A stretch of DNA of 64,000 bases from assembly GCA_003507445.1 (NCBI GenBank), contig DNVR01000019.1, positions 206,132 through 270,131 of the forward strand. Reading direction: 5' to 3'. Source of the stretch: Candidatus Moraniibacteriota bacterium. Lineage in GTDB: Bacteria > Patescibacteriota > Minisyncoccia > Moranbacterales > GWC2-37-73. The position numbers were made by a program, and so were the translations under genes. Below the pieces are notes generated by a model. That model ran no database searches and was not told where the DNA came from. It saw nothing but the letters and a program-made list of their open reading frames with translations. Shown one piece after another: positions 496 through 61,073 of this stretch (the stretch's first letter is position 1; every line of letters starts with the position of its first letter).

Positions 496-2265
496 ATGAA
501 CAATGAAAAACAACAGATTAATATACGTGATTTGATGCCATATTTGAAGGTTTTTAAGGGCAGAATAATCGCTAGCATTTTTTTGGTCATAGTCTCAAAG
601 TTTTTGTTGGTGGCTGGACCATATGTGATGAAGAAGCTCATCGATTTGCTGGTAACATATGGAACAGCAGCCTCAATTGCAACCATCGCATTTTTGTTGG
701 CGTTGTTCTTTATGCTGCAGTGGGGTGGAAATGTTTTGGATGGTATAAAGGATTATGTTTTCGCCAAAGTGCAGGCCAACATCCGAAGGACAATTTCGCT
801 GAAAGTTTTTGAGCATTTAATTTCTTTGCCTTCATCCTTTCATGCTGATCGTTCAACTGGCAGAGTGTCTCGCAAAATAACACGTGGGACAAATGCGCTG
901 GAAACAATTTTTATGTTTATGTCTTTTAATATTGTTCCGACTGTCATTCAAATTATTTTTGTAAGCATCGTTTTTGTGATGCTTTTCCCACTTTCATTTT
1001 TTCTGACATTTTTGGTTTTTGTGATTGTATATGTTGCGTTTACAATTTATATCACTGAGCGTAGGCAACAATTGCTTTTGGAAACAAATAAGCTTGACGA
1101 CAAGGCAACTGGGCAATCTATTGATGCACTTTTAAATTATGACACGGTCAAATATTTTACCAATGAAAAATATGAATATCAAAGATATGATTCACAGTTG
1201 GGAGATTGGTCTGGTATGTTTATAAAATCAATCAGATCTGGCGCAAATTTGAATATGGGACAAGGCTTTATAATCACAGCGGGACTTGCAGCCATTTTGA
1301 TTTTGGCTGTCGAGCATTTTGTTAATGGAGATGCGACAATTGGTGATTTTGTTTTGGTCACAACTTATCTGGCCAACATCGCAGTCCCGCTTGGTTTCTT
1401 GGGTTTTACTTATCGCGCTATCAAAGAAGGACTAGCTAATGTTGATGAGATGATGAAATTACTAAAAGAAAAAAATACAATTCAAGATAAAGCGGATGCA
1501 AGAGAATTGCAGGATTGGGCGGGGGAGATAAAATTTGAAAATGTAAGTTTCAGTTATGCCGAGGAAAGGGAGGTGCTTAGCGACATTTCGCTGACCGTGC
1601 CATTTAAAAAGCGTGTTGCACTTGTTGGATATTCTGGCTCTGGAAAATCAACGGTGCCAAAATTATTGCTAAGATTGTATGATGTTAACAATGGAAAAAT
1701 CACAATCAATGGCACAGATATTAGAGATTTAAAATTGCAAAATTTGCGCAGTCATATTGGAATTGTTGCTCAAGACACAACTTTGTTTAATGATACTATT
1801 TTTCACAATATTGCTTATGGCAAACCAGATGCAACAAAGGAAGATGTTGAGCGTGCGGCAAAAATGGCAAACATTTTCGATTTCATCGTTAATGATTTGC
1901 CCAGTGGATTTGAAACTGTTGTTGGCGAACGTGGAGTGAAATTGTCAGGCGGAGAAAAACAACGAGTTGCAATTGCAAGAATGCTAATAAAGAATCCTGA
2001 AATTTTGATTTTTGATGAAGCCACAGCTTCGCTTGATACAAAATCAGAAAAAATAATACAAGAGGAAATTGAAAAACTTTCCAAAGGAAACATCACCACC
2101 ATTGTTATCGCGCACAGGCTTTCAACGATTGTTGATTTTGACAATATTGTTGTTTTGGAAAAAGGAAAAATAGTCGAACAAGGAAATCACAAAGAGCTTT
2201 TATCCAAAAAGGGTGTTTATTACAGCCTATGGCAAACCCAAAGCAAGGGAATTGCTGAAGCATGA
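496..2265 (+). CDS. ABC transporter, fused permease/ATP-binding exporter (MsbA-like)
   Basis: 589 aa; N-terminal 6-TM region, Walker A GYSGSGKST, ABC signature LSGGEKQRVAIAR, Walker B ILIFDEATASLD. Confidence 0.85.
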   Translation: MNNEKQQINIRDLMPYLKVFKGRIIASIFLVIVSKFLLVAGPYVMKKLIDLLVTYGTAASIATIAFLLALFFMLQWGGNVLDGIKDYVFAKVQANIRRTISLKVFEHLISLPSSFHADRSTGRVSRKITRGTNALETIFMFMSFNIVPTVIQIIFVSIVFVMLFPLSFFLTFLVFVIVYVAFTIYITERRQQLLLETNKLDDKATGQSIDALLNYDTVKYFTNEKYEYQRYDSQLGDWSGMFIKSIRSGANLNMGQGFIITAGLAAILILAVEHFVNGDATIGDFVLVTTYLANIAVPLGFLGFTYRAIKEGLANVDEMMKLLKEKNTIQDKADARELQDWAGEIKFENVSFSYAEEREVLSDISLTVPFKKRVALVGYSGSGKSTVPKLLLRLYDVNNGKITINGTDIRDLKLQNLRSHIGIVAQDTTLFNDTIFHNIAYGKPDATKEDVERAAKMANIFDFIVNDLPSGFETVVGERGVKLSGGEKQRVAIARMLIKNPEILIFDEATASLDTKSEKIIQEEIEKLSKGNITTIVIAHRLSTIVDFDNIVVLEKGKIVEQGNHKELLSKKGVYYSLWQTQSKGIAEA

Positions 2266-2351
2266 TTATTTATATTACAATATTTCAGTATATTGTAATT
2301 AAACGCATAGCACGCTTGTATCTTACTTTTGAACATACGTATCCTTTTTGT

Positions 2352-2373
2352 GTTACGTAGCAAGTTACGCAAC
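2352..2373. repeat. degenerate copy of tandem 10-bp TACGTA palindrome element (gttacgtagcaagttacgcaac)
   Basis: matches GYTACGTARC-AT-GYTACGTARC family seen at 22391, 33109, 33682, 38309, 40457, 41927. Confidence 0.5.
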
Positions 2374-2401
2374 AACATAAATTATAATCAAAAACTCCAA
2401 C

Positions 2402-2432
2402 CACTCACTCAACGTCGGCCGTGGAAGAGTGA
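2402..2432. repeat. GC-rich 31-bp repeat CACTCACTCAACGTCGGCCGTGGAAGAGTGA (copy 1 of 3)
   Basis: near-identical copies at 40534-40564 and 41184-41215; inverted termini cactca/tgagtg around CGGCCG core. Confidence 0.6.
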
Positions 2433-2558
2433 ATGCACATCTTTGCGGAGGACCGTCCTTGGGAATTTCCTGCGGGTTTTTATTTGTGTTGGCTTGAGTT
2501 ATGGCTAGTTGGATGATATTATAAAATCAGTTTAAAAACCTTAATATATGATAAAAAT

Positions 2559-3293
2559 ATGTTTAAAGACAAGGTGGTTGTTGTGACTGGGGCATCAAGT
2601 GGGATTGGAGCTGAAACAGCTTTGGCTTTTGCAAAAGAAGGTGCAAATCTTGTTATTACATACAAAGATAACAAGGTGGGAGCAGAAGAAGTTGCTGCCA
2701 AAATAATCCAAGCAGGAGGCGGAGCTATTGTTGTTCAAGCTGATTTGATCAATGAGTCAGATGCTAAGAATGTTATTGAAAAGGCTAAATCAGAATATGG
2801 TAAAGTTGATATTTTAGTTAATAACGCTGGCAGATATATTGATGGCGATGAATGGAATGGGAATTCTGAAATTTGGACAAAAAGCCTTTTGCAAAATCTT
2901 GTTTCAGTGATGAGTGTCTCAAAATATGCAATCGAAATTTTTCAGCAGCAAAAATCAGGAGTAATTGTGAACATTTCGTCGCGATATTCAACAGACGGAC
3001 AATATGATGCATTGGCTTATGCGGCGGCAAAAGCTGGCGTGGTAAACATAACTCAAGCATATGCAAAATTACTCGCACCATTTGGAAGGGCTAATGCAAT
3101 TTCTCCTGGAGCAGTTAATACTGGCTATTGGCTGCGAGCGCCGAAAGAAGAATTGGAAAAAAATTTGGCCGCAATCCCATCTGGAAAACTGGTTGAGCCG
3201 AAAGAAGTTGCTGAAAAAGTTTTATTCTTAGCTTCAGACGAATCTTCAAATATAAATGGGCAAAATATTTTTATAAATAATATTATAAAATAA
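2559..3293 (+). CDS. SDR-family oxidoreductase (3-oxoacyl-ACP reductase-like)
   Basis: 244 aa; TGASSGIG Rossmann motif, NNAG, YxxxK (YAAAK) catalytic motif. Confidence 0.8.
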   Translation: MFKDKVVVVTGASSGIGAETALAFAKEGANLVITYKDNKVGAEEVAAKIIQAGGGAIVVQADLINESDAKNVIEKAKSEYGKVDILVNNAGRYIDGDEWNGNSEIWTKSLLQNLVSVMSVSKYAIEIFQQQKSGVIVNISSRYSTDGQYDALAYAAAKAGVVNITQAYAKLLAPFGRANAISPGAVNTGYWLRAPKEELEKNLAAIPSGKLVEPKEVAEKVLFLASDESSNINGQNIFINNIIK

Positions 3294-3297
3294 AATT

Positions 3298-3615
3298 ATG
3301 ACAAATGAATTTCAAGAAAAAGTCAAAATGTTCATGGATGAAAATAAGATGAATAATCCTATTGAAAATAGGGTTCTTGATTTGTTTGATGAAGTTGGTG
3401 AAGTTGCAAAAGAAGTTAATAAAATGTCCAGCTATGGTACAAAAAAGCCTGAATTTAGAGAAGAAATAATAATGGAGCTTGGTGATGCTTTTTATTCACT
3501 GATAACAGTTGCCAATTATTATGATGTGGATTTATTGAATTCTCTTTCCATGGCTGTTGAAAAATATGAAAAACGAATCAAGAAAGGCGGTCATGCGGGA
3601 TCGGAAAATGATTAA
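3298..3615 (+). CDS. MazG-like nucleotide pyrophosphohydrolase domain protein
   Basis: 105 aa all-alpha; EVGEVAKEV / ELGDAFYSL helix motifs typical of the MazG NTP-PPase family. Confidence 0.55.
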   Translation: MTNEFQEKVKMFMDENKMNNPIENRVLDLFDEVGEVAKEVNKMSSYGTKKPEFREEIIMELGDAFYSLITVANYYDVDLLNSLSMAVEKYEKRIKKGGHAGSEND

Positions 3616-3635
3616 TTTTGAAATTTTAAACTTAT

Positions 3636-4100
3636 ATGTATAATCACGCACCGGAAAATTACAATTGCCCGATATGCTTGGGCGTCAATGGAATTGAGAG
3701 TGATGCAACAATGCTAAAACAGGCAGACATTGTTTATAAGGATGATTTAGTTTGTGCTTTTGTAAATTCAAAATTTGTTGGAAATAATCCTGGTCATGTA
3801 ATTGTTGTCCCAAATGAACATTTTGAAAATTTGTATGATATGCCGGAAGATGTTTTGAGTAGAGCAATTTCTGTGTCTAAGAAAATTGCAATTGCAATGA
3901 AAAAAGCTCGCAATTGTGATGGTGTGATGATTCAACAGAATAACGAGCCAGCAAGCAATCAACACGCTTTTCACTATCACATGCACGTTTTCCCTAGATT
4001 CGATGGCGACGAAATTTATCAGCACATGAACAGCGCGCGAGTTTCAGATCCACAAGAAAGAATCGCTTATGCAGAAGAATTAAAAAAGTATTTAAACTAA
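3636..4100 (+). CDS. HIT-family hydrolase
   Basis: 154 aa; histidine triad HYHMHVFPR, N-terminal CxxC. Confidence 0.8.
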   Translation: MYNHAPENYNCPICLGVNGIESDATMLKQADIVYKDDLVCAFVNSKFVGNNPGHVIVVPNEHFENLYDMPEDVLSRAISVSKKIAIAMKKARNCDGVMIQQNNEPASNQHAFHYHMHVFPRFDGDEIYQHMNSARVSDPQERIAYAEELKKYLN

Positions 4101-4110
4101 GAATAAAACT

Positions 4111-4659
4111 ATGAAAATTTTCATCGTCAGACATGGAGAAACAGATTCAAACAAAAATAAGAAACTCATGGGGCAGAGAATGAATGACCCATTGAATGCC
4201 GAGGGCATTGAACAGATCAAAAAGCTTTCCGAAGAAATTGACACAGATTTTGATGTTATTTTTACCTCGCCATTAGTGCGAGCAAAACAATCTGCACAAA
4301 TTCTCGCTGCAAAAATTGGTGCTCCTGTTGTTGAAAAGCAGGAGATTATGGAACGAGATTTTGGTGATTTTTCAGGTAAAACCTGGGATGAGATGATTAA
4401 AAAACTTGGAGAAGCGGCGAGTGATTTGAAAAAAGAAGATTTTGAACAAAATTATGATTATCGTCCTTATGGCGGAGAATGTGCGGCAGATGTTAAGGGA
4501 AGGTTTTTGAAATTTGTTGAAGAATTAAAAAAAGACTATGCAGACAAGAAAGTTTTAATTGTTGCTCATGGTGGAATATTGAAATTGGCACACTTTCTAT
4601 TTTCTGAAATAAGAGTTGAACATGTGCAAAATGCTGCAATTTGCGAATTTGATATTTAG
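4111..4659 (+). CDS. histidine phosphatase family protein (phosphoglycerate mutase-like)
   Basis: 182 aa; RHGETDSN catalytic motif at N-terminus, second His in VAHGG. Confidence 0.75.
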   Translation: MKIFIVRHGETDSNKNKKLMGQRMNDPLNAEGIEQIKKLSEEIDTDFDVIFTSPLVRAKQSAQILAAKIGAPVVEKQEIMERDFGDFSGKTWDEMIKKLGEAASDLKKEDFEQNYDYRPYGGECAADVKGRFLKFVEELKKDYADKKVLIVAHGGILKLAHFLFSEIRVEHVQNAAICEFDI

Positions 4660-4684
4660 ACTTTGTAAAATATTTTTTAAAAAT

Positions 4685-4882
4685 ATGACAAGTGAAAATG
4701 AAAATATTTTTGTGGAAGACATAATTGCAGAGGCGGAAAAGTCTTCCGGTGATATTCAAGATGGTGTGGTAGATAAACTTCAGTCTTTATTGAAAGATGA
4801 ATTTTGTTCAGAAGAATCAAGCAATGCAACTATCACACAAATTGCAAAGAATCTTATTGAAGAGCAAGTTAAAGAACTATAA
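4685..4882 (+). CDS. small acidic hypothetical protein, upstream partner of Rad50-like ATPase
   Basis: 65-aa ORF (inner ATG of 4616..4882 ORF, past the overlap with the upstream gene); stop 4 nt before the ATPase ATG at 4887; no SD seen. Confidence 0.35.
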   Translation: MTSENENIFVEDIIAEAEKSSGDIQDGVVDKLQSLLKDEFCSEESSNATITQIAKNLIEEQVKEL

Positions 4883-4886
4883 AAGA

Positions 4887-7223
4887 ATGAAAATCAATAA
4901 AATTAAAATTGCATGGTTTCGTGGAGCATCTGATCCTGTCGAAATGGAACTGAATTCCAAATCACTTGTTATTTATGGCGAAAATGGAGCAGGGAAATCA
5001 TCATTTGTTGATTCGATCGAATATATAATAAACAACGGCAGAATAACACACCTTGCGCATGAACATAGTGGACGAAGGCAAGAAAAAGCTATTGTAAATA
5101 CTCATACACCTGGCAGTCAAAAAGGAGAAATAAAAGTTACGTTAGATGATAATTCTGAAGTCTTGGTTGAAATACAGCGCAATGGCGCTTTTTCTATTTC
5201 ACCAGATAACTCAGAAATATCAAAATGGAATTATCGTCGAACAGTTCTCAGACAAAATGAACTTGCTGATTTTATCGCTCATACAAAAGGCGATAAATAT
5301 TCTGCATTGTTGCCCTTGCTTGGATTGAGCTACTTGGAAGTTGCAGCAGAAAATCTTAGAAAATTAGAAAATTCGATTCAATCGCAAACTAGTCTTTTAG
5401 TGAAGAGGGAGGAAATTAGAAAAATAGAAGAAAAGAGACGGCTAGCTTTTGGAGATTTAGATAGAGCTGGTATTGAAAAGGAGGCAAAAGTTTTATTTAA
5501 AAAATACTGCAGTGAAAAAGAGGTTCCAGAAGATATCGATGATGTTGTTCTGGAAGCAAGTTCATCTCTGAATGTATTAATTGGAAAATTAGCAGATGAT
5601 CAAAAAAAATATACTACTCAATTAGAAATTTCTAGCTTTGAAATAAAAAAGCAAGTGGAGGACATTAGAATTAGTGCCTCTAAACTTGCAGAATACACAG
5701 TCCCTTTGATTATCGAAAAGCTTAATGTCTTAAAAACAGCTTCTGTGTTTGTTAAAAAAATAGAAGGGGAATCATTGATTGACTGTCCTGCATGTGGGCA
5801 ATCCATCTCTCCATCCGACTTCTCGTCCCATGTTGAAACAGAAGAATTGAGATTAAAGGAGGCTTCTGAAAATTTGGAATTGCATAAGTCCAACATAGGA
5901 AAACTTTGTGATAATTTGCAAAATTTAAAAAGGGCATGTGCTAAGGATGAGGTAAAAGATTGGAAGGATAAATGTAGTCATATCTATATTGATTATGTTG
6001 AGTCCCTTAATATTGATAATGTTCGTTTCGCTTGCACGGAAGAAATTCTTGCGGAAATTGATGAAAAAATAATTCCAATTTTGGAATCTGCAAAATTAGC
6101 CAGCGGAACAGTTCCTTCTGAGGTGAGGGAATTACTAACTGATCAAGAAAAATTAAAAACTATTAATGAAATTATTAAAGGGGACGCATTGAGGAAGTAT
6201 GTTTTAAAAATAGAAAATCTTGCTAAATTTATAAATTCTATTCAAAAGATATATAGAGAGCGGATCCGTTCGCAGTCATCGGCTGTTATTGCTGTTATTT
6301 CTGCAGATATTGCAAGAATGTGGGGTATTCTGCATCCTAATGAGAAGATTGAAAATGTTCATTTATATTTTCCAGAAAATGTGGATAAGGCTATCGAGAT
6401 TGGATTAAAGTTTTATGGTGTAGATCAGGAATCCCCGCGTTTAACTTTATCAGAAGGACACAGAAATAGTCTTGGTTTGTGCATTTTTCTATCAATGGTA
6501 AAGCGTGATATAAGTGCTGATTGTCCTGTTTTTCTTGATGATGTTGTTGTAAGTTTTGACCGTAATCATCGTGGAATGGTTGCGAACTTACTTGAAAGTG
6601 AATTTGATGGTAAGCAAATTATTCTTCTGACACATGATCGCGAGTGGTATATAGAATTAAAACATCAATTGTCAGCTCAAAATTGGGAGTTTAAGGCGCT
6701 GATGCCATGGGAAAGTCCTGATATTGGAATAAGATTTTCCTCAAAGCAGTATGCATTTGATGATGCTAGATTTTTTCTAAGTGGAAATCCAGATTCAGCT
6801 GGCAATACTGCACGCAAGATAATGGACACTCAAATTGCTATATTGAGCGAGCCTCTAAAAATTAGTCTTCCATATTTACATCGCGAACGAAATGATCACA
6901 GAACTGCTCATGATTTTCTTCCGAAGATTATTGCTCTTAGTCCAACGTCATTTTATATCAAAGAAGACGGGGTAAATTATATACCTTTTATAGCAGCGAT
7001 AGATGTTTTTAAAAAGGCAGATCGCCTTATTTTGGCTTGGGCAAATCGGGCATCGCATAGTTTTGATTTAGCTCAAAATGAAGCTACTGAACTTATAGAC
7101 ACTTGCGAAAGTGCATTATCTCAATTCGTTTGTTCTAATTGTGGAAAGGATGTTACGCGTCTTGATGATAAAAGTGCAAAATTTCTTCAATGTGCATGTG
7201 GAAATTTAAAATGGAAATATTAA
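4887..7223 (+). CDS. Rad50/SMC/RloC-like ABC ATPase with coiled-coil CxxC hook-like motif and C-terminal zinc ribbon (candidate defense ATPase)
   Basis: start taken at MKINKIKIAWF (ATG 4887) after the upstream stop; Walker A GENGAGKSS; long coiled-coil insert containing CPACGQS; signature-like LSEGHRNSLGL; Walker B/D-loop VFLDDVVVSFD; H-loop LLTHDREW; ~200-aa C-terminal extension ending CSNCGK...CACGN. Confidence 0.7.
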   Translation: MKINKIKIAWFRGASDPVEMELNSKSLVIYGENGAGKSSFVDSIEYIINNGRITHLAHEHSGRRQEKAIVNTHTPGSQKGEIKVTLDDNSEVLVEIQRNGAFSISPDNSEISKWNYRRTVLRQNELADFIAHTKGDKYSALLPLLGLSYLEVAAENLRKLENSIQSQTSLLVKREEIRKIEEKRRLAFGDLDRAGIEKEAKVLFKKYCSEKEVPEDIDDVVLEASSSLNVLIGKLADDQKKYTTQLEISSFEIKKQVEDIRISASKLAEYTVPLIIEKLNVLKTASVFVKKIEGESLIDCPACGQSISPSDFSSHVETEELRLKEASENLELHKSNIGKLCDNLQNLKRACAKDEVKDWKDKCSHIYIDYVESLNIDNVRFACTEEILAEIDEKIIPILESAKLASGTVPSEVRELLTDQEKLKTINEIIKGDALRKYVLKIENLAKFINSIQKIYRERIRSQSSAVIAVISADIARMWGILHPNEKIENVHLYFPENVDKAIEIGLKFYGVDQESPRLTLSEGHRNSLGLCIFLSMVKRDISADCPVFLDDVVVSFDRNHRGMVANLLESEFDGKQIILLTHDREWYIELKHQLSAQNWEFKALMPWESPDIGIRFSSKQYAFDDARFFLSGNPDSAGNTARKIMDTQIAILSEPLKISLPYLHRERNDHRTAHDFLPKIIALSPTSFYIKEDGVNYIPFIAAIDVFKKADRLILAWANRASHSFDLAQNEATELIDTCESALSQFVCSNCGKDVTRLDDKSAKFLQCACGNLKWKY

Positions 7224-7396: not shown

Positions 7397-8059
7397 ATGA
7401 ACAAACAAGAAATTATAAACAATACTGCAAAATATGCACGTGAAACGCTAGAGGGTGAAACTTCTGGTCACGACTGGTGGCACGTCTATCGTGTTTGGAA
7501 GATGGCACAGAACATAGGACAAAAAGAAAACGCCGACATGTTTGTGGTTGAACTGGCTGCACTTCTTCATGACATTGCTGATTATAAAATGCATAGTGGT
7601 GACGACACGGTCGGGTCAGGGGTTGCAAGAGAGTGGCTCGAAAAGCAAGGAGTTGATGATGAAACTATTTTCCATGTTTGTGAAATTATAAAAGAAGCAT
7701 CATTTAAGGGTGAAAAAGTTGAATCAAAAATAAATACTGTTGAGGGAAAAGTTGTGCAAGACGCAGATCGCTTGGATGCTATCGGCGCGATTGGTATAGC
7801 TAGAGGATTCATGTTTGCGGGAAATAAAAGTTTACCCATGTATGATCCAGATATAAAACCATTGGAGATACATGACTTCGAGGTATATAAAAATATAAAA
7901 AGACCAACATACACACAAATAAATCATTTCTATGAAAAACTTTTACTGCTCAAGGATTTGATGAATACTGAAAGTGGAAAAGAAATTGCACAGGGTAGGC
8001 ATGTGATCATGGAGAACTATTTGAAAGATTTTTTTAATGAGTGGGAGGGCAAGGCTTAA
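7397..8059 (+). CDS. HD-domain phosphohydrolase
   Basis: 220 aa; H...HD motif (AALLHDIADYK), downstream D (VQDADRLDAIG). Confidence 0.75.
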   Translation: MNKQEIINNTAKYARETLEGETSGHDWWHVYRVWKMAQNIGQKENADMFVVELAALLHDIADYKMHSGDDTVGSGVAREWLEKQGVDDETIFHVCEIIKEASFKGEKVESKINTVEGKVVQDADRLDAIGAIGIARGFMFAGNKSLPMYDPDIKPLEIHDFEVYKNIKRPTYTQINHFYEKLLLLKDLMNTESGKEIAQGRHVIMENYLKDFFNEWEGKA

Positions 8060-8071
8060 ATTTGCTTTTCC

Positions 8072-8160
8072 AAAGCCATTGCGCGGTTCAATCTGCTCTC
8101 AACCGACTCCCAATTTTCAAGGATATTAGTTCGAAGCGTGTACCCTAGCCCGTGCATAGA
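8072..8160. repeat. island-boundary conserved block, copy A
   Basis: AAAGCCATTGCGCGGTTCAATCTGCTCTCAAC...CCCAATTTTC...GTTCGAAGCGTGTACCCTAGC; 4 copies (8072, 9472, 10731, 11909); followed by terminator-like hairpin 8176-8205 and TTGACA box (12-nt spacer to TATGCT) 8235-8262. Confidence 0.7.
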
Positions 8161-8351
8161 TGAAGCAAGGCTCAAGTGAGCCTTGTTTTTGATAGGGGAA
8201 AATACATCTTCGAACCGAAATCTAAAAAATATTGACATTTTCCTTCGAATATGCTAAAAAGATAAGTCCACTGTGGACGAGATTTATGAATAAATCTTCA
8301 GTTCTTCGCAGTATAAATAATGGTCGAGGGACCTAAACCCAGGAGGCAAAA

Positions 8352-8918
8352 ATGGGCATAATTGATGACATTAAAGCATGGATGGGTAAACATCGGATTT
8401 TCGCAACTCTTGTTGTTCTGACACTGGTTGTCGTCCTTGGCGGCGGAACCTTCCGGGTCCTGTTTTGTACCTTTGTAGACAAGCACGAAACATGCTTCAT
8501 CTACGACAGAATTTCCGGTCAGGTAGAAATTCCGGATCGAACAGGCTACATCGTCCGCGCGCCAATCATTTATTCGGTGCACACGCTTGATACGCGTCCG
8601 TACCAGCTTTCTATCACTGCCAACATTGGGTCTCCTGGTACGTCTAGCGTTTCTTCGCGGGTTCTTAATGCCAAGCTGGTCAGGTTTAATCCCAAGGGCA
8701 TATCAACATTCATTTCCTGGCATGGACGTGACGCCGGCGACAAATTGGCAAATTTGCTGGAAATCATGAAGTGTTATGCCTTCGACAAAGAGGGAGGAAG
8801 GGATTGCCCGTTCATAACAGTTCTTAATGAAATCAATCCCAGTCAAACCCCCTCCCAGCTGGGGGATACCACTGCTTCCTCGATTACACCCAGTGTTCAT
8901 ACTGGAGCAAAGCCATGA
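8352..8918 (+). CDS. hypothetical membrane-anchored protein, paralog 1 (higher GC, ~50%)
   Basis: 188 aa; N-terminal TM helix; shares DTRP...LNAKLVRFN / KCYAFDKEGGRDCPFITVLNE blocks with downstream paralog; weak resemblance to SPFH N-terminal region. Confidence 0.5.
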   Translation: MGIIDDIKAWMGKHRIFATLVVLTLVVVLGGGTFRVLFCTFVDKHETCFIYDRISGQVEIPDRTGYIVRAPIIYSVHTLDTRPYQLSITANIGSPGTSSVSSRVLNAKLVRFNPKGISTFISWHGRDAGDKLANLLEIMKCYAFDKEGGRDCPFITVLNEINPSQTPSQLGDTTASSITPSVHTGAKP

Positions 8919-9394
8919 AGGGACTCGACGATATTCTGACGAAACATCGACTGAGGATACCAGTCATTATCTCAAGTGTCATATTCATCGTTGCACTCTT
9001 CTTCTATCTCTGTTTTCTAAACTATAATGAACCGACGGAGATTGGAATAGCTAGAAACGTGTTCTCTGGAGAAGCATGGTCACAGGAAGGTGGGGGTTGG
9101 CATCGTACGGCGCCGTGGGTGTTTGTGTCTAAGATCGACACGAGACCTATGAAAGTTGGTGTGACGACTTCCGGACACGGATTCAGTGCTAAACTTGTGC
9201 AGTTCAACACCAGGGAATGGCAGGAGTTCATCATGACAGAGGGCTTCCGCTACTGGTGGTGGGACAATCGCATCTCTTTCAACTTCGGATACAGTGAAGA
9301 ATATCGCGGGATGAAGGACATTCTGCGCGGCTACGCTTACAGCGTGAAACGCTACCCCTTCATAACAATACTGGAAGAGTATCAGACACAATAA
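8915..9394 (+). CDS. hypothetical membrane-anchored protein, paralog 2
   Basis: 159 aa; ATGA start/stop overlap with upstream gene; N-terminal TM; DTRP...SAKLVQFN / RGYAYSVKRYPFITILEE blocks paralogous to 8352 gene. Confidence 0.5.
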   Translation: MKGLDDILTKHRLRIPVIISSVIFIVALFFYLCFLNYNEPTEIGIARNVFSGEAWSQEGGGWHRTAPWVFVSKIDTRPMKVGVTTSGHGFSAKLVQFNTREWQEFIMTEGFRYWWWDNRISFNFGYSEEYRGMKDILRGYAYSVKRYPFITILEEYQTQ

Positions 9395-9471
9395 CAACAT
9401 CTTGAAAATGCAGGATTATACTGGCATGTTCATCTCACACGAGAAGAATGTGTCAGTTTTTTTATTTCATT

Positions 9472-9565
9472 AAAGTCATTACTTGCTCCAATCTTGTCTC
9501 AACAACATACCAATTTTTAAGTATATTAGTTCGAAGTGCGTACTTTAGCCCGTACAGACTAAAAT
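9472..9565. repeat. island-boundary conserved block, copy B
   Basis: AAAGTCATTACTTGCTCCAATCTTGTCTCAACAACATACCAATTTTT...GTTCGAAGTGCGTACTTTAGC; then hairpin/T-run 9565-9592. Confidence 0.7.
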
Positions 9566-9736
9566 AAGTCTTTACAGAGCCTTATTTTTTGTATAGAGAG
9601 ATTGGAATTATAACTGTGATATAATATTAATATAAATTTATCTTTAATAAGATAAACAAAAAATCGCGTGATACATTTTTGAAATTTTTGACGCAAATTA
9701 GGTTGAGCTGGTATAACAATTTTTAGAAATAAAAAT

Positions 9737-10699
9737 ATGGCAAAGAGATTATTTGAGTCGGTAGGTAATGACGTTTCCGCTATTACTAAGGGATCACAAC
9801 CGGAAGAAATAAAAAAAATTACAAAAGAAGCGGGGGAAGATTCTAGGAAATTATTATTTGAGGAGATGGAATCTGATATTGAAAAAATTGCTCCCAGTCT
9901 CGTTGATATTTGCGAAAAAGTATTAGAAGAAAAACCAGATATAATAATTTTTCTTGATAAGAGCGCACGTATTTTTGCGGGTCCAATTAAAAAGTACCTT
10001 GGAGATTCAACTGAAGGCAAAAAAGATGTTTTGCCGAAATTTTATTTTTATAATAATGATACAATTAACCAAGAAATTACCAAATATAGAGGTGGAGTTT
10101 TTTGTGCTCAGGTTGATTTAGATCTGGAAAAGAAAATTGCCGATGAATTCAAAATATTGACAGGAAAGAAAATTTTTATAGTTGATGAAAATTATTCCTC
10201 TGGAAAGGTTTTACGTATGTGGATAGAAGTTAATAATGTGCTTAATGGTCTTGATCCGGAAACACAAATTCATTTCTTTGCTTTAACAAGAGATGAACAA
10301 GAAAGAGAGTATAAAGAGAGAGTTAAATTTTTTAAAAATGAAACATTAGAAAAGGCTGTTGCTGAGCCAAATTTTAAGTTTACAATTTATGACGCCGTAA
10401 AAACAAATGTTTTTTCTAAATCTGATCATTTTCAATATGTTCAAGATCGTGACTTAAACGGTAGTGTTATATCTGAAGGAATTAACAATTCTTTGAAAAG
10501 AAGCAAAATTGGTATAAATTCTCCCTTGGATTTGTCTAGTGCGAAGACAGATGATACACATCACACAAGGACAGGTACGTATGAAGAACGTGAAGAAGCA
10601 AATACTCGTATATTTGAAGCTGTAAAAATAGCGAAACAACGAACCTATGAAAAGATGAAGGAATTTTCAAATAATAAAAAAAATATTATTGGCACCTAA
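9737..10699 (+). CDS. hypothetical protein with phosphoribosyltransferase-like fold motifs
   Basis: 320 aa; IIIFLDKSARIFAGPI and KIFIVDENYSSGKVL resemble type I PRTase PRPP-binding loop; low GC unlike neighbours. Confidence 0.4.
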   Translation: MAKRLFESVGNDVSAITKGSQPEEIKKITKEAGEDSRKLLFEEMESDIEKIAPSLVDICEKVLEEKPDIIIFLDKSARIFAGPIKKYLGDSTEGKKDVLPKFYFYNNDTINQEITKYRGGVFCAQVDLDLEKKIADEFKILTGKKIFIVDENYSSGKVLRMWIEVNNVLNGLDPETQIHFFALTRDEQEREYKERVKFFKNETLEKAVAEPNFKFTIYDAVKTNVFSKSDHFQYVQDRDLNGSVISEGINNSLKRSKIGINSPLDLSSAKTDDTHHTRTGTYEEREEANTRIFEAVKIAKQRTYEKMKEFSNNKKNIIGT

Positions 10700-10730
10700 A
10701 TTTCTAGCAGTTGAGTATTATTGTTTTATC

Positions 10731-10808
10731 AAAGCCTTTGCTCGCTCTAATCTTGCCTCAACAACATCCCAATTTTCGATGATATCGGTACCCTAGCTTG
10801 TGCATGCT
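10731..10808. repeat. island-boundary conserved block, copy C (10-nt deletion relative to others)
   Basis: AAAGCCTTTGCTCGCTCTAATCTTGCCTCAACAACATCCCAATTTTCGATGATATCGGTACCCTAGC; followed by terminator-like hairpin 10811-10838 and TTGACA box (12-nt spacer to TATGCA) 10877-10905. Confidence 0.7.
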
Positions 10809-10984
10809 AAACAGAACTCAGTTGAACTCTGTTTTTGTATAGAGAAATGAGCCTTTGAACAAAAAATTTAATAAATATTGACATTTTGCTTTGGATATGC
10901 AAATATTTGATATTCCTTAACAATTGTAAGAAGTGTTCATTTTTTTCTGATAATATCGACTATATCAAGACAAAGGAGAATGCC

Positions 10985-11623
10985 ATGGCTGACAACAGAG
11001 AGCATGATAGAGATTTCCTTAAACACGTAGAAATAATTAAGCCACCTTTTGCTGACCTTGCGAATGTGGACAGAAATGCCGGATGCAATTCGTTTCCTGC
11101 TTGGGTCGGCGAAGCATGCGTTGGACTTATCTTTGATCCTGCAAGACTTGCTCCTGATGAAAAAAGAATCTCAATTCTTCCTGATGACTGGATACTGGCA
11201 CTCATGAGACAGGATCCCCAAGATCTTTCGAACATGGCTGCGCTTTGGATGCATTACAATGTGTTTTGGGGCGGGGGAATAAGTACTTCTATTGAAAATA
11301 TTAAAATTCTTGGAAAGGGGAGATTAATGGAGAAAGGTCAGAAATGTTATCTGCCGACAATACACATGAAAATCAGGTCTGCAGGTTCGGTAAATGCTTT
11401 CATTGACGGGGATGTCTGTGACGTCGATGAGTATGAGATTATCGAACTGATAGGTCGGCGTCTTCCTCCTCTTGAATATGAACATGCTTGCTTGCCGCTT
11501 GATACTCCACGGATGGATAGAGGTATGTCCAAGTGGGAAGTGATTCACAAGGAAGGAAATATTATAGACGAGTTTGCGGTACGTGCTCTTCAGAAAATGG
11601 ATGTTGAAATTATTTGCGTTTGA
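10985..11623 (+). CDS. hypothetical protein (mid/high GC)
   Basis: 212 aa from MADNREHD (ATG 10985) preceded by AAGGAGA RBS; the longer ORF from 10886 runs through the promoter-like repeat. Confidence 0.45.
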   Translation: MADNREHDRDFLKHVEIIKPPFADLANVDRNAGCNSFPAWVGEACVGLIFDPARLAPDEKRISILPDDWILALMRQDPQDLSNMAALWMHYNVFWGGGISTSIENIKILGKGRLMEKGQKCYLPTIHMKIRSAGSVNAFIDGDVCDVDEYEIIELIGRRLPPLEYEHACLPLDTPRMDRGMSKWEVIHKEGNIIDEFAVRALQKMDVEIICV

Positions 11624-11659
11624 TAGGATTCTTAAGTCTAGAGAGAAAAGGAGGATTTT

Positions 11660-11839
11660 ATGGACAAGGTGGAAGCGGATGTGTTGCATCCCAGTCATGT
11701 CACTCGTATTTCGGACGCATCTTCTTTTGATGAGATATGCATTAATTGTGGTGCGACCGATAATCCTCTTGGACTGAGGGGTGAAGGTATATGGGGAGAG
11801 TTGGCCAAGCCATGCTCCAAAGCTGCTAAGACGCAATAA
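11660..11839 (+). CDS. small Cys-containing hypothetical protein (59 aa)
   Basis: not in ORF track (<60 aa); strong RBS AAAGGAGGA 7 nt upstream; CINCG...PCSK; followed by canonical terminator. Confidence 0.4.
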   Translation: MDKVEADVLHPSHVTRISDASSFDEICINCGATDNPLGLRGEGIWGELAKPCSKAAKTQ

Positions 11840-11864
11840 AAAGACATAACGGCAAATGCCATGG

Positions 11865-11899
11865 AGACTCGCAAATCGAAAGATTTGCGAGTCTTTTTT
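11865..11899 (+). terminator. rho-independent terminator
   Basis: gagactcgcaaatc-gaaa-gatttgcgagtc followed by TTTTTT. Confidence 0.65.
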
Positions 11900-11908
11900 C
11901 ATTTCATT

Positions 11909-11993
11909 AAAGTTTTTGCGCGCTCCAATCTTGTCTCAACAACATCCCAATTTTCTATTATATCGGTTCGAAGCGTGTACCCTAGCTCTGTGC
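11909..11993. repeat. island-boundary conserved block, copy D
   Basis: AAAGTTTTTGCGCGCTCCAATCTTGTCTCAACAACATCCCAATTTTCTATTATATCGGTTCGAAGCGTGTACCCTAGC; followed by the ddl promoter (TATAAT at ~12036). Confidence 0.7.
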
Positions 11994-12073
11994 AGGTGAT
12001 AAGATGCATCAATGCGATGTGTTCTGTGTTTTTTGGTGGTATAATGGGGTTATAAGCATATTATATAAAACAT

Positions 12074-61000: not shown

Positions 61001-61073
61001 GGGCACATAGCTCAGTTGGTAGAGCAGCGGCCTTTTAAGCCGATGGTCGGGGGTTCGAATCCCTCTGTGCCCA
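61001..61073 (+). tRNA. tRNA-Lys (anticodon UUU)
   Basis: manual fold: 7-bp acceptor GGGCACA/UGUGCCC, D-arm GCUC/GAGC, anticodon loop CUUUUAA, T-arm GGGGG-UUCGAAU-CCCUC, discriminator A; no encoded CCA. Confidence 0.9.

Follow-up and report, generated by a model that had tools for sequence, protein, structure and literature searches.

The best-known gene cassettes of bacteria, those of integrons, are followed by attC sites, which have the layout 5'-RYYYAAC (R''), an imperfect palindrome and GTTRRRY (R')-3'. In another group of systems, the composite islands of the staphylococcal cassette chromosome (SCC) at the 3' end of rlmH and the accretion of integrative and conjugative elements (ICE) and cis-mobilizable elements (CIME) at the 3' end of fda, the acquired segments are separated by direct repeats which reproduce the 3' end of a gene; these att repeats are 15-30 bp long, the intact target gene can be identified, and a recombinase is found in at least one element. 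Bacteria of the candidate phyla radiation (CPR) have tiny genomes and are thought to be poor in mobile elements, and how they acquire accessory and anti-phage genes is little understood. We analysed a stretch of 64 kb of a Candidatus Moraniibacteriota bacterium (contig DNVR01000019.1, positions 206,132-270,131; hereafter the window, to which all plain coordinates refer), in which four copies of a conserved block separate short gene units next to a ddl gene. An earlier note on this DNA had read the copies as partitioning the region into cassette-like units, and the comparison with other loci agrees with it, as dozens of related contigs have this repeat on either side of variable, unrelated genes (L-numbers designate the loci fetched for comparison). 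We tentatively favour the reading that a chromosomal hot spot here holds a cassette array which resembles an integron but is distinct from it, and in which the block and its terminator hairpin, here called the cassette-end module, would be the capture handle; our confidence stays below an even chance because neither a recombinase nor a single crossover point was found.

The profile search, with a profile built from many copies, placed four direct copies on the forward strand at 8050-8221 (A), 9441-9610 (B), 10712-10868 (C) and 11880-12065 (D), with E-values in the range of about 1e-43 to 1e-29 (nhmmer, 9e-43, 1.5e-29, 6e-32 and 9e-34, respectively). The four-copy block of the earlier note is, therefore, real, and starts ~15 nt to the left of where it had been placed. 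Repeat detection returned one family of four 93-nt copies at intervals of 1400, 1259 and 1178 nt, whereas the whole element, as delimited by the profile, is ~100-190 nt long. Identity between pairs of copies in the window is 62-83%; copy B is decaying, and copy C carries an 11-bp deletion (GTTCGAAGCGT), seen in the MAFFT alignment. A fifth copy is absent from the window, in which the leftover weak profile matches are generic terminator hairpins. The window is 100% identical to contig DOKX01000004.1 of the Candidatus Moranbacteria metagenome-assembled genome GCA_003510165.1. Within the block, the direct motifs (T/C)CCAATCT, CTCAAC/T and CCCAATTT are phased 10-11 nt apart, about one helical turn (8087-8118, 9487-9518, 10746-10777 and 11924-11955); as read by eye, they resemble the binding sites of a DNA-binding protein.

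The copies stand between transcription signals. As read from the sequence, a hairpin and a T-run follow block A (hairpin 8166-8185, T-run 8186-8190) and block C (10812-10831 and 10832-10836), each with a right arm further on, CTTCGAAC at 8208-8215 and CTTTGAAC at 10853-10860, respectively. The hairpin that the earlier note reported after block B is present in a degenerate form, and another hairpin with T-run, at 9457-9463, precedes it. Separate strong terminators lie directly before blocks B and D, such as the intrinsic terminator of unit 3 at 11863-11896 on the forward strand (15-pair stem and T-run in the terminator scan), so that the block is often bracketed by two terminators. TTGACA boxes follow modules A and C, as had been noted; instead of the non-canonical 12-nt spacer described for them, we found canonical distances of 17-18 nt to -10 elements. 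The putative promoter of unit 1 (8232-8260, +) consists of TTGACA at 8232-8237, a 17 nt spacer and an extended -10 TGcTAAAAA at 8252-8260, and that of unit 3 (10878-10907, +) of TTGACA at 10878-10883, an 18 nt spacer and AATATT (10/12 matches in the promoter scan); the two regions are 85% identical and form a second repeat family. The ddl promoter, expected downstream of block D, was found there (TGgTATAAT, 12037-12045, +). Over all the loci, promoter-like sites on the cassette strand are enriched 3' of the blocks, being present in 37 of 71 regions against 16.7 +/- 3.5 in shuffles.

The genes between the blocks differ from the rest of the window in composition, although not all of them. The GC content is 0.485 and 0.473 for the two genes of unit 1 (u1a and u1b), 0.430 and 0.478 for those of unit 3 (u3a and u3b), and 0.314 for the single gene of unit 2 (u2), the window mean being 0.363; the higher-GC island of the earlier note is, thus, limited to units 1 and 3. 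Strong Shine-Dalgarno sequences precede u1a, u3a and u3b, while native genes and u2 have none. In these two sequence features, units 1 and 3 are foreign to the host.

To look beyond the window, JGI metagenomes were scanned with the 29-nt pattern AATCTNNNNNMAAYNNNNTCCCAATTTTC, which gave 63 loci, and contigs found through the peptide described below were added. By nhmmer, there are 108 block matches in 59 loci, and four of these 59 are chance-level pattern matches, which leaves ~55 contigs with the block. All the copies within a locus lie on one strand, and they can be numerous, with ~10 copies in 10 kb in L046 and four or five each in L069, L076, L079 and L051. Neighbouring copies are 190-6835 nt apart, in most cases 0.4-1.7 kb, and of the 76 open reading frames (ORFs) between blocks, 72 are co-oriented with the block. 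The 84 representative cassette proteins include Fic (6, also recognised as SoFic in PADLOC), GNAT (5), NUDIX (4) and HD (3) proteins, methyltransferases and ASCH proteins, single examples such as a Pycsar cyclase and effector, permeases and hydrolases, and many proteins belonging to no family. The known defence genes among them, SoFic, Pycsar and restriction-modification, lend support to the defence-like content suggested by the earlier note. The five proteins of the window's own units match no known defence family: at E <= 0.01, PADLOC gave no match for u1a, u1b, u2, u3a and u3b, and likewise NCBIfam gave none.

The arrays have a conserved position. Those of the window, L076 and L079 are all a few kb upstream of glyS, and in five other loci the arrays lie downstream of PSP1-TPR-helix-turn-helix (HTH) genes, placing the arrays at conserved chromosomal hot spots. 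As to the content, the HD-domain phosphohydrolase gene on the left of copy A (7397-8059, +; Pfam HD, E 1.5e-11) has a 79% identical homologue in L076 (3145-3807) with block copies on both sides, and another in L048 that is followed by a block; it is probably the first cassette of the window array, judging from these neighbourhoods. In a contig with a 75%-identical Ddl, the genes upstream of ddl are other than in the window. Both cases bear out the variable gene content that had been proposed, and we found neither the block spread ubiquitously apart from variable genes nor the five genes in synteny without the repeats. An exact 21-mer of the block is absent from GTDB representatives, and among 80 glyS-anchored loci of related genomes none has the block or shares the synteny. 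A phage origin of the block was considered and dropped, since two scans of IMG/VR gave chance matches or none. A full-text literature search returned no account of such arrays in CPR/Patescibacteria, which is absence of evidence only. Two side observations concern the hot spots. A ~200-aa protein with an N-terminal HTH (cluster c10; weak match to Pfam HTH_23), found in L051, L056, L078 and L020, recurs immediately upstream of the arrays, after the PSP1 and TPR genes, and in L078 (2662-4287) a large serine recombinase is inserted right behind the gene of this protein.

Contigs which share a cassette and then part show where the exchanges have occurred. Pairs that are 91-100% identical (L020/L029, L025/L070 and L042/L048) diverge at the T-run of the terminator or 0-17 nt after it, and a single Fic unit, found behind four unrelated block/hairpin contexts, begins in each of them precisely with its -35 TTGACA; the stretch that separates the T-run from the following promoter is short, unrelated filler. 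These junctions, together with the cassettes' own promoters, indicate that the exchanged units are whole transcription units. In one contig pair, the block travels with the upstream gene. Moreover, in L042/L048, the block shows 1 mismatch in ~105 nt, while identity over the whole 850-nt alignment is 91%; here, the block evolves more slowly than the neighbouring gene. A crossover at the invariant core TCCCAATTTTC was examined as a candidate and rejected, since 41 of 57 significant breakpoints coincide with the boundary between block and hairpin and hardly any with the core, in a scan of the maximum-chi-square type that does not separate recombination from rate differences.

In the explanation that we favour, the arrays would be exchangeable gene cassettes of the chromosomes of Moranbacteria and related Parcubacteria. 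Each unit may be viewed as a self-contained expression module, with a sigma-70-type promoter, one to three genes and an intrinsic terminator, and it would close with the conserved cassette-end module. The latter appears to have two parts: a ~65-nt stretch that can be read as the 3' two-thirds of a convergent micro-ORF (...NILENWDRIEVRLERAMALMKQI and a stop) and holds the nucleotide-invariant cores TCCCAATTTTC and CCAATCT, and a ~30-nt variable linker with the terminator hairpin, which in about a fifth of the copies extend to a ~95-nt imperfect palindrome. The module would then serve all cassettes as a shared handle for recognition, capture and reshuffling at the hot spot, an analogue of the integron attC on which a recombinase encoded elsewhere in the genome would act in trans, and the hairpins might insulate each acquired unit transcriptionally. 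What we observed directly are the arrays, their polarity, the diversity and reshuffling of the cassettes, and the coding and DNA-level constraints on the module.

Several observations weigh against this explanation. The junctions lie mostly outside the block, leaving no single crossover point, and in L047/L069 the break falls within the block's left part. Copies of one Fic gene, at 81-83% identity, have different block variants behind them or else run straight into other genes. The window array has one and the same sequence in five samples of the same population, which gives no sign of ongoing mobility. Only ~22% of the copies possess the right arm of the palindrome. As for the enzyme, a jackhmmer search seeded with XerD and IntI1 sequences revealed no tyrosine recombinase in the window and in the first 79 fetched loci (434 kb), to which it was confined, and the serine recombinases that were met are sporadic (L001, L078, L041/L062 and L004) and lie outside the units or atypically inside them. 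Finally, the minus frame of the block is under protein-level selection, reported below, for which a pure DNA site offers no explanation.

Compared with integrons, and in particular with a classical cassette array lying far from an integrase (a cluster of attC sites lacking integron-integrases, CALIN), the resemblance is considerable. In both, co-oriented cassettes of one to three genes are each followed by a ~100-150-nt element with palindromic potential; the repertoire, in which GNAT, NUDIX, Fic/toxin-like, defence and orphan genes predominate, is alike, cassettes are common to arrays in different contexts, and the chromosomal site is fixed. Copies possessing the arm after the terminator fold, as single-stranded DNA, into a ~95-nt imperfect palindrome with outer and inner stems (z -3.5 to -8); in module A, GTTCGAAG pairs with CTTCGAAC around the hairpin (z -4.3), and in one variant the pair is replaced by GTCCGAAG/CTTCGGAC, a compensatory change. 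Nevertheless, the blocks are very unlikely to be attC sites of a CALIN. The identity with attC was rejected by box order and consensus: whichever strand is read, GTTCGAAG ... CTTCGAAC has GTT in first place and AAC in last place, opposite to the attC order, and each box fits only 5/7 consensus positions. The right arm is missing from most copies, and neither attI nor an IntI-like protein was found, the latter in the search of the window and the first 79 loci. Integron cassettes are co-oriented, ~0.5-1.5 kb long and mostly promoterless; here orientation and size agree with this, and most cassettes carry their own promoter and terminator. Junctions fall after the terminator instead of in a G|TT core, the repeats within an array are heterogeneous, and the block has a coding signature on the opposite strand, whereas we know of none for attC sites.

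This signature, a feature that the earlier note did not contain, is borne by a micro-ORF that runs convergent to the cassettes. On the minus strand, the block reads as a peptide of ~21-33 aa, (MHG..)NILENWDRIEVRLERAMALMKQI, closed by a stop codon. Micro-ORF A (8056-8157, -) has 33 codons and translates as MHGLGYTLRTNILENWESVESRLNRAMALEKQI; B (within 9441-9610, -) reads ...LKYALRTNILKNWYVVETRLEQVMTLMK, C (within 10712-10868, -) reads DIIENWDVVEARLERAKALIKQ, its frame being broken by the 11-bp deletion, and D (11899-12012, -; from the ORF list) ends in LGYTLRTDIIENWDVVETRLERAKTLMK, each before a stop. Coding statistics were computed on 72 distinct block copies, stop counts on 65 distinct sequences and codon tallies on 28 copies. 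Over the last 21 codons of the minus frame, the ratio of nonsynonymous to synonymous polymorphism (pN/pS) is 0.37 and replacements are conservative (mean BLOSUM62 +0.28), while the mirror frame, with the same wobble columns, gives 0.46 and -0.87, and the four remaining frames 0.79-1.65 and -0.65 to -1.37. A single stop codon was observed in the minus frame, against 35.4 +/- 5.7 under the neutral expectation and 7.9 +/- 2.0 in column-preserving shuffles, and 0 of 2000 shuffles gave a count as low. In 57 of 72 copies, the stop lies 19-21 codons past the Glu of ENW. The information per codon shows wobble degeneracy: Leu is encoded by TTG, TTA, CTG and CTA, and Arg by all four CGN codons. The last 21 codons, with their open frame, conserved stop, purifying selection and avoidance of stops, have the properties by which a small gene is recognised.

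The main rival explanation starts from these data and holds that the block is foremost a real multi-copy gene, convergent to each accessory gene, for a micro-protein of ~26-33 aa that would form an amphipathic helix (...NILENWDRIEVRLERAMALMKQI). The peptide, its translation or an antisense transcript would act on the neighbouring unit or on the maintenance of the cassette, and the arrays would reflect co-transfer of pairs of gene and micro-gene. We regard this as possible but on the whole unlikely; it is compatible with the module being a cassette handle and does not exclude it. Besides the coding statistics, it is supported by an NTG codon (ATG, TTG or GTG) at the MHG position in 20 of 28 copies and by a copy in L168 (~1330-1400, core CCCAATGCAAC), in which the DNA has diverged enough to escape the DNA profile and the minus frame still reads ...LHWDRIELKVERMQNMLNRFQN and a stop, including ...WDRIELKVERM...; the family is, therefore, wider than the ~100 copies counted. 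In addition, no longer parent protein ending in the peptide was found: among 1.84 billion representatives, an exhaustive HMMER search returned 19 ORFs, 29-183 aa long, and in 5.8 billion proteins a word-indexed search with the micro-ORF peptide gave only 4 short ORFs; Pfam and NCBIfam have no model for it, and the longest ORF upstream of any copy has 78 codons and is unconserved.

On the other hand, several observations weigh against this rival. Minus-strand promoters are not enriched (14 of 71 regions against 16.7 +/- 3.5 in shuffles), and the micro-ORF begins 5-10 nt after a hairpin, often with terminators on both sides. Its N-terminal third (MHG...RTN) has no coding signal and contains hairpin-like insertions and frameshifts that compensate each other between variants; indels break the frame in ~7% of the copies, and in ~11% a truncation lies immediately before ENW. 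The cores GAA AAT TGG and AGA TTG are invariant also at wobble positions (AAT in 28/28 and AGA in 27/28 copies), which points to an added constraint on the block at the DNA level. Finally, there is no obvious rationale for a gene repeated up to ten times in 10 kb. Two other roles of the block sequence were tried and dropped. The TNILEN segment fits the inhibitory motif [ST]xxxE[GN] of Fic antitoxins; this idea was abandoned as the S/T position is unconserved, the cassette Fic proteins bear their own motif and the block follows all kinds of genes. As for a structured RNA, Rfam at E <= 5 gave only chance matches, and RNAalifold on the plus strand of 46 copies gave zero consensus pairs; at the RNA level only the terminator hairpins fold, each in its own sequence. 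A side observation concerns P0011, a 183-aa protein from the exhaustive HMMER search, which has three tandem copies of RFCRTEILSNWDSVEL and points to a locus in which the block core is tandemly triplicated.

Returning to the cassette-handle explanation, its fullest form would join the two constraints: the arrays would represent an undescribed cassette-capture system of the CPR, integron-like but unrelated to integrons, in which the module is at once recognition/recombination site and translated micro-gene, the enzyme possibly targets terminators, and the hot spot is stocked with defence and stress genes. We consider this extended form speculative and rather doubtful. Were the element both translated and a site of recombination, cassette capture would have a new solution beside that of attC and IntI; were it an expressed micro-protein gene, its copy number would be unusually high for a small gene and its computational signature clear, and the tryptic peptides predicted from the translation include TNILENWESVESR and TDIIENWDVVETR. 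In practical terms, the element is searchable and marks exchangeable units, as the 29-nt pattern and the profile recovered the ~100 copies; the block could be used as a handle to catalogue the flexible gene pool of the lineage, to find defence candidates and to seek the moving enzyme.

The coding-like repeat closing with a stop codon also recalls the SCC and ICE islands, since in both cases direct repeats of a coding 3' end separate the acquired segments. According to this alternative, the blocks would be the duplicated 3' ends of a target gene (attL/attR-type), left by the serial tandem integration of elements which later lost their mobility genes. The foreign GC and Shine-Dalgarno of units 1 and 3 are in line with it, as are the large serine recombinases at the edge of L001 and L078, and in L002 and L053 the neighbour of the array is a tRNA-Leu gene, reached at its 3' end, with parAB alongside. 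Still, we judge it improbable. The repeat is 100-190 nt long and no recombinase is linked to it; no intact target gene was found at any array end, and no protein longer than 183 aa has the end of the peptide among the 1.84 billion representatives. The units, of 0.4-1.7 kb, are free of remnants of mobility genes, the blocks of one array differ from each other as much as those of separate arrays do, and the junctions are not inside the repeat. Similarly, the serial integration at one site assumed by the earlier note, which would imply elements that move by themselves or duplicated att sites, is not upheld: neither the window nor the first 79 fetched loci yielded an integrase, the representative cassette proteins include no integrase or excisionase, the units of the window have no mobility genes, and the junctions fall where the T-run ends and at the -35 box that follows. 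It was also observed that in L002 (2014-2181) and L053 (5385-5552) the terminator of the tRNA replaces the right half of the block. A repeat derived from a tRNA was rejected for the window, in which ARAGORN finds only a tRNA-Lys at 61001.

It could be argued, instead, that the block is a dispersed intergenic repeat or miniature inverted-repeat transposable element (MITE), similar to repetitive extragenic palindromes (REP), bacterial interspersed mosaic elements (BIME) or enterobacterial repetitive intergenic consensus sequences (ERIC), which lands behind terminators, has nothing to do with the mobility of cassettes and owes its abundance here to chance or local duplication. It is short and non-autonomous, has palindromic parts, and many copies start directly after a T-run. 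We find this explanation hard to credit, given that the four copies are gathered in a 4-kb island and none is present behind ~55 other genes of the window, that the block is always with variable accessory genes in one fixed orientation, and that neither terminal inverted repeats nor target-site duplications were seen. In addition, the copies within one array are as diverged as those of different arrays (62-83%), which speaks against local duplication.

Phage morons and the islands of defence hot spots are a further term of comparison for the units. They share with them the autonomous organisation, with sigma-70-like promoter and intrinsic terminator, and the foreign GC and Shine-Dalgarno; as in defence hot spots, an LmuB-like ATPase, SoFic, Pycsar and restriction-modification genes are found in or beside the arrays, and the flanks are conserved. 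Unlike the arrays, such islands are not punctuated by a conserved repeat, and the arrays described here are chromosomal, with no match in IMG/VR. The candidate defence units of the window would be the SPFH-like pair of unit 1, the phosphoribosyltransferase (PRTase)-like protein of unit 2 and the two-gene orphan unit 3.

Unit 1 (8352-9394, +) consists of two genes that overlap by ATGA at 8915-8918; their products, of 188 and 159 aa, both have a transmembrane helix at the N-terminus, followed by an SPFH-like domain. As the earlier note had stated, they are paralogues (blastp E 2e-10, 25% identity). Its suggestion of a weak SPFH-like resemblance is strengthened by modelling: the AlphaFold model of the first protein has a predicted local distance difference test (pLDDT) score of 89.3, and Foldseek ranks 1-30 in the PDB are all SPFH proteins (probability 0.47-1.00, at least 0.9 in 24 of 30; E 3e-4 to 0.3), with template modelling (TM) scores of only 0.3-0.43, and no match to Pfam Band_7 at sequence level. 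By this model, the unit 1 proteins have the alpha/beta fold of the SPFH domain behind a membrane anchor. In this respect, and as adjacent paralogues, they resemble the pairs HflK/HflC, prohibitin 1/2 and erlin 1/2; they differ from SPFH/Band-7 scaffolds in being much shorter and in having no long C-terminal coiled coil, which builds the SPFH cage. The family has more than 135 homologues and occurs as pairs, without blocks, in other lineages, so that the pair can be described as a conserved two-gene module of short SPFH-like membrane proteins without coiled coil, present in many lineages. Among the loci of homologues examined (L165-L167), the pair lies among dozens of small same-strand ORFs in L166, a phage-like context, and beside a tyrosine integrase and a DUF559 endonuclease in L167.

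Unit 2 (9737-10699, +) encodes a protein of 320 aa, at a GC content of 0.31 and with no Shine-Dalgarno; the PRTase fold proposed for it finds a weak echo in Pfam Pribosyltran (E 3.2e-4), under the gathering score. Unit 3 (10985-11839, +) encodes proteins of 212 and 59 aa, both with Shine-Dalgarno and neither giving a family match. The 212-aa protein has only two homologues among 5.8 billion proteins; L168, one of the two loci (75% identical), has the diverged block downstream.

The surroundings of the array offered some further observations. The region of a histidine-phosphatase gene at 4092-4658 has no block and is 88% identical at the nucleotide level to a stretch of L065 (542-1105), a contig which does bear one, and the exchangeable island may, therefore, reach leftwards past the HD gene. 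The gene directly upstream of the array (4797-7223, +) encodes an SMC-like ATPase of 808 aa that has zinc-ribbon motifs; the ATPase aligns along its full length with the Lamassu LmuB profile (PADLOC E 3.9e-26), with no recognisable LmuA partner adjoining. In L168, the gyrB gene beside the homologue of the 212-aa protein (2007-5390) holds an intein (Pfam Intein_splicing), which is unrelated to the arrays.

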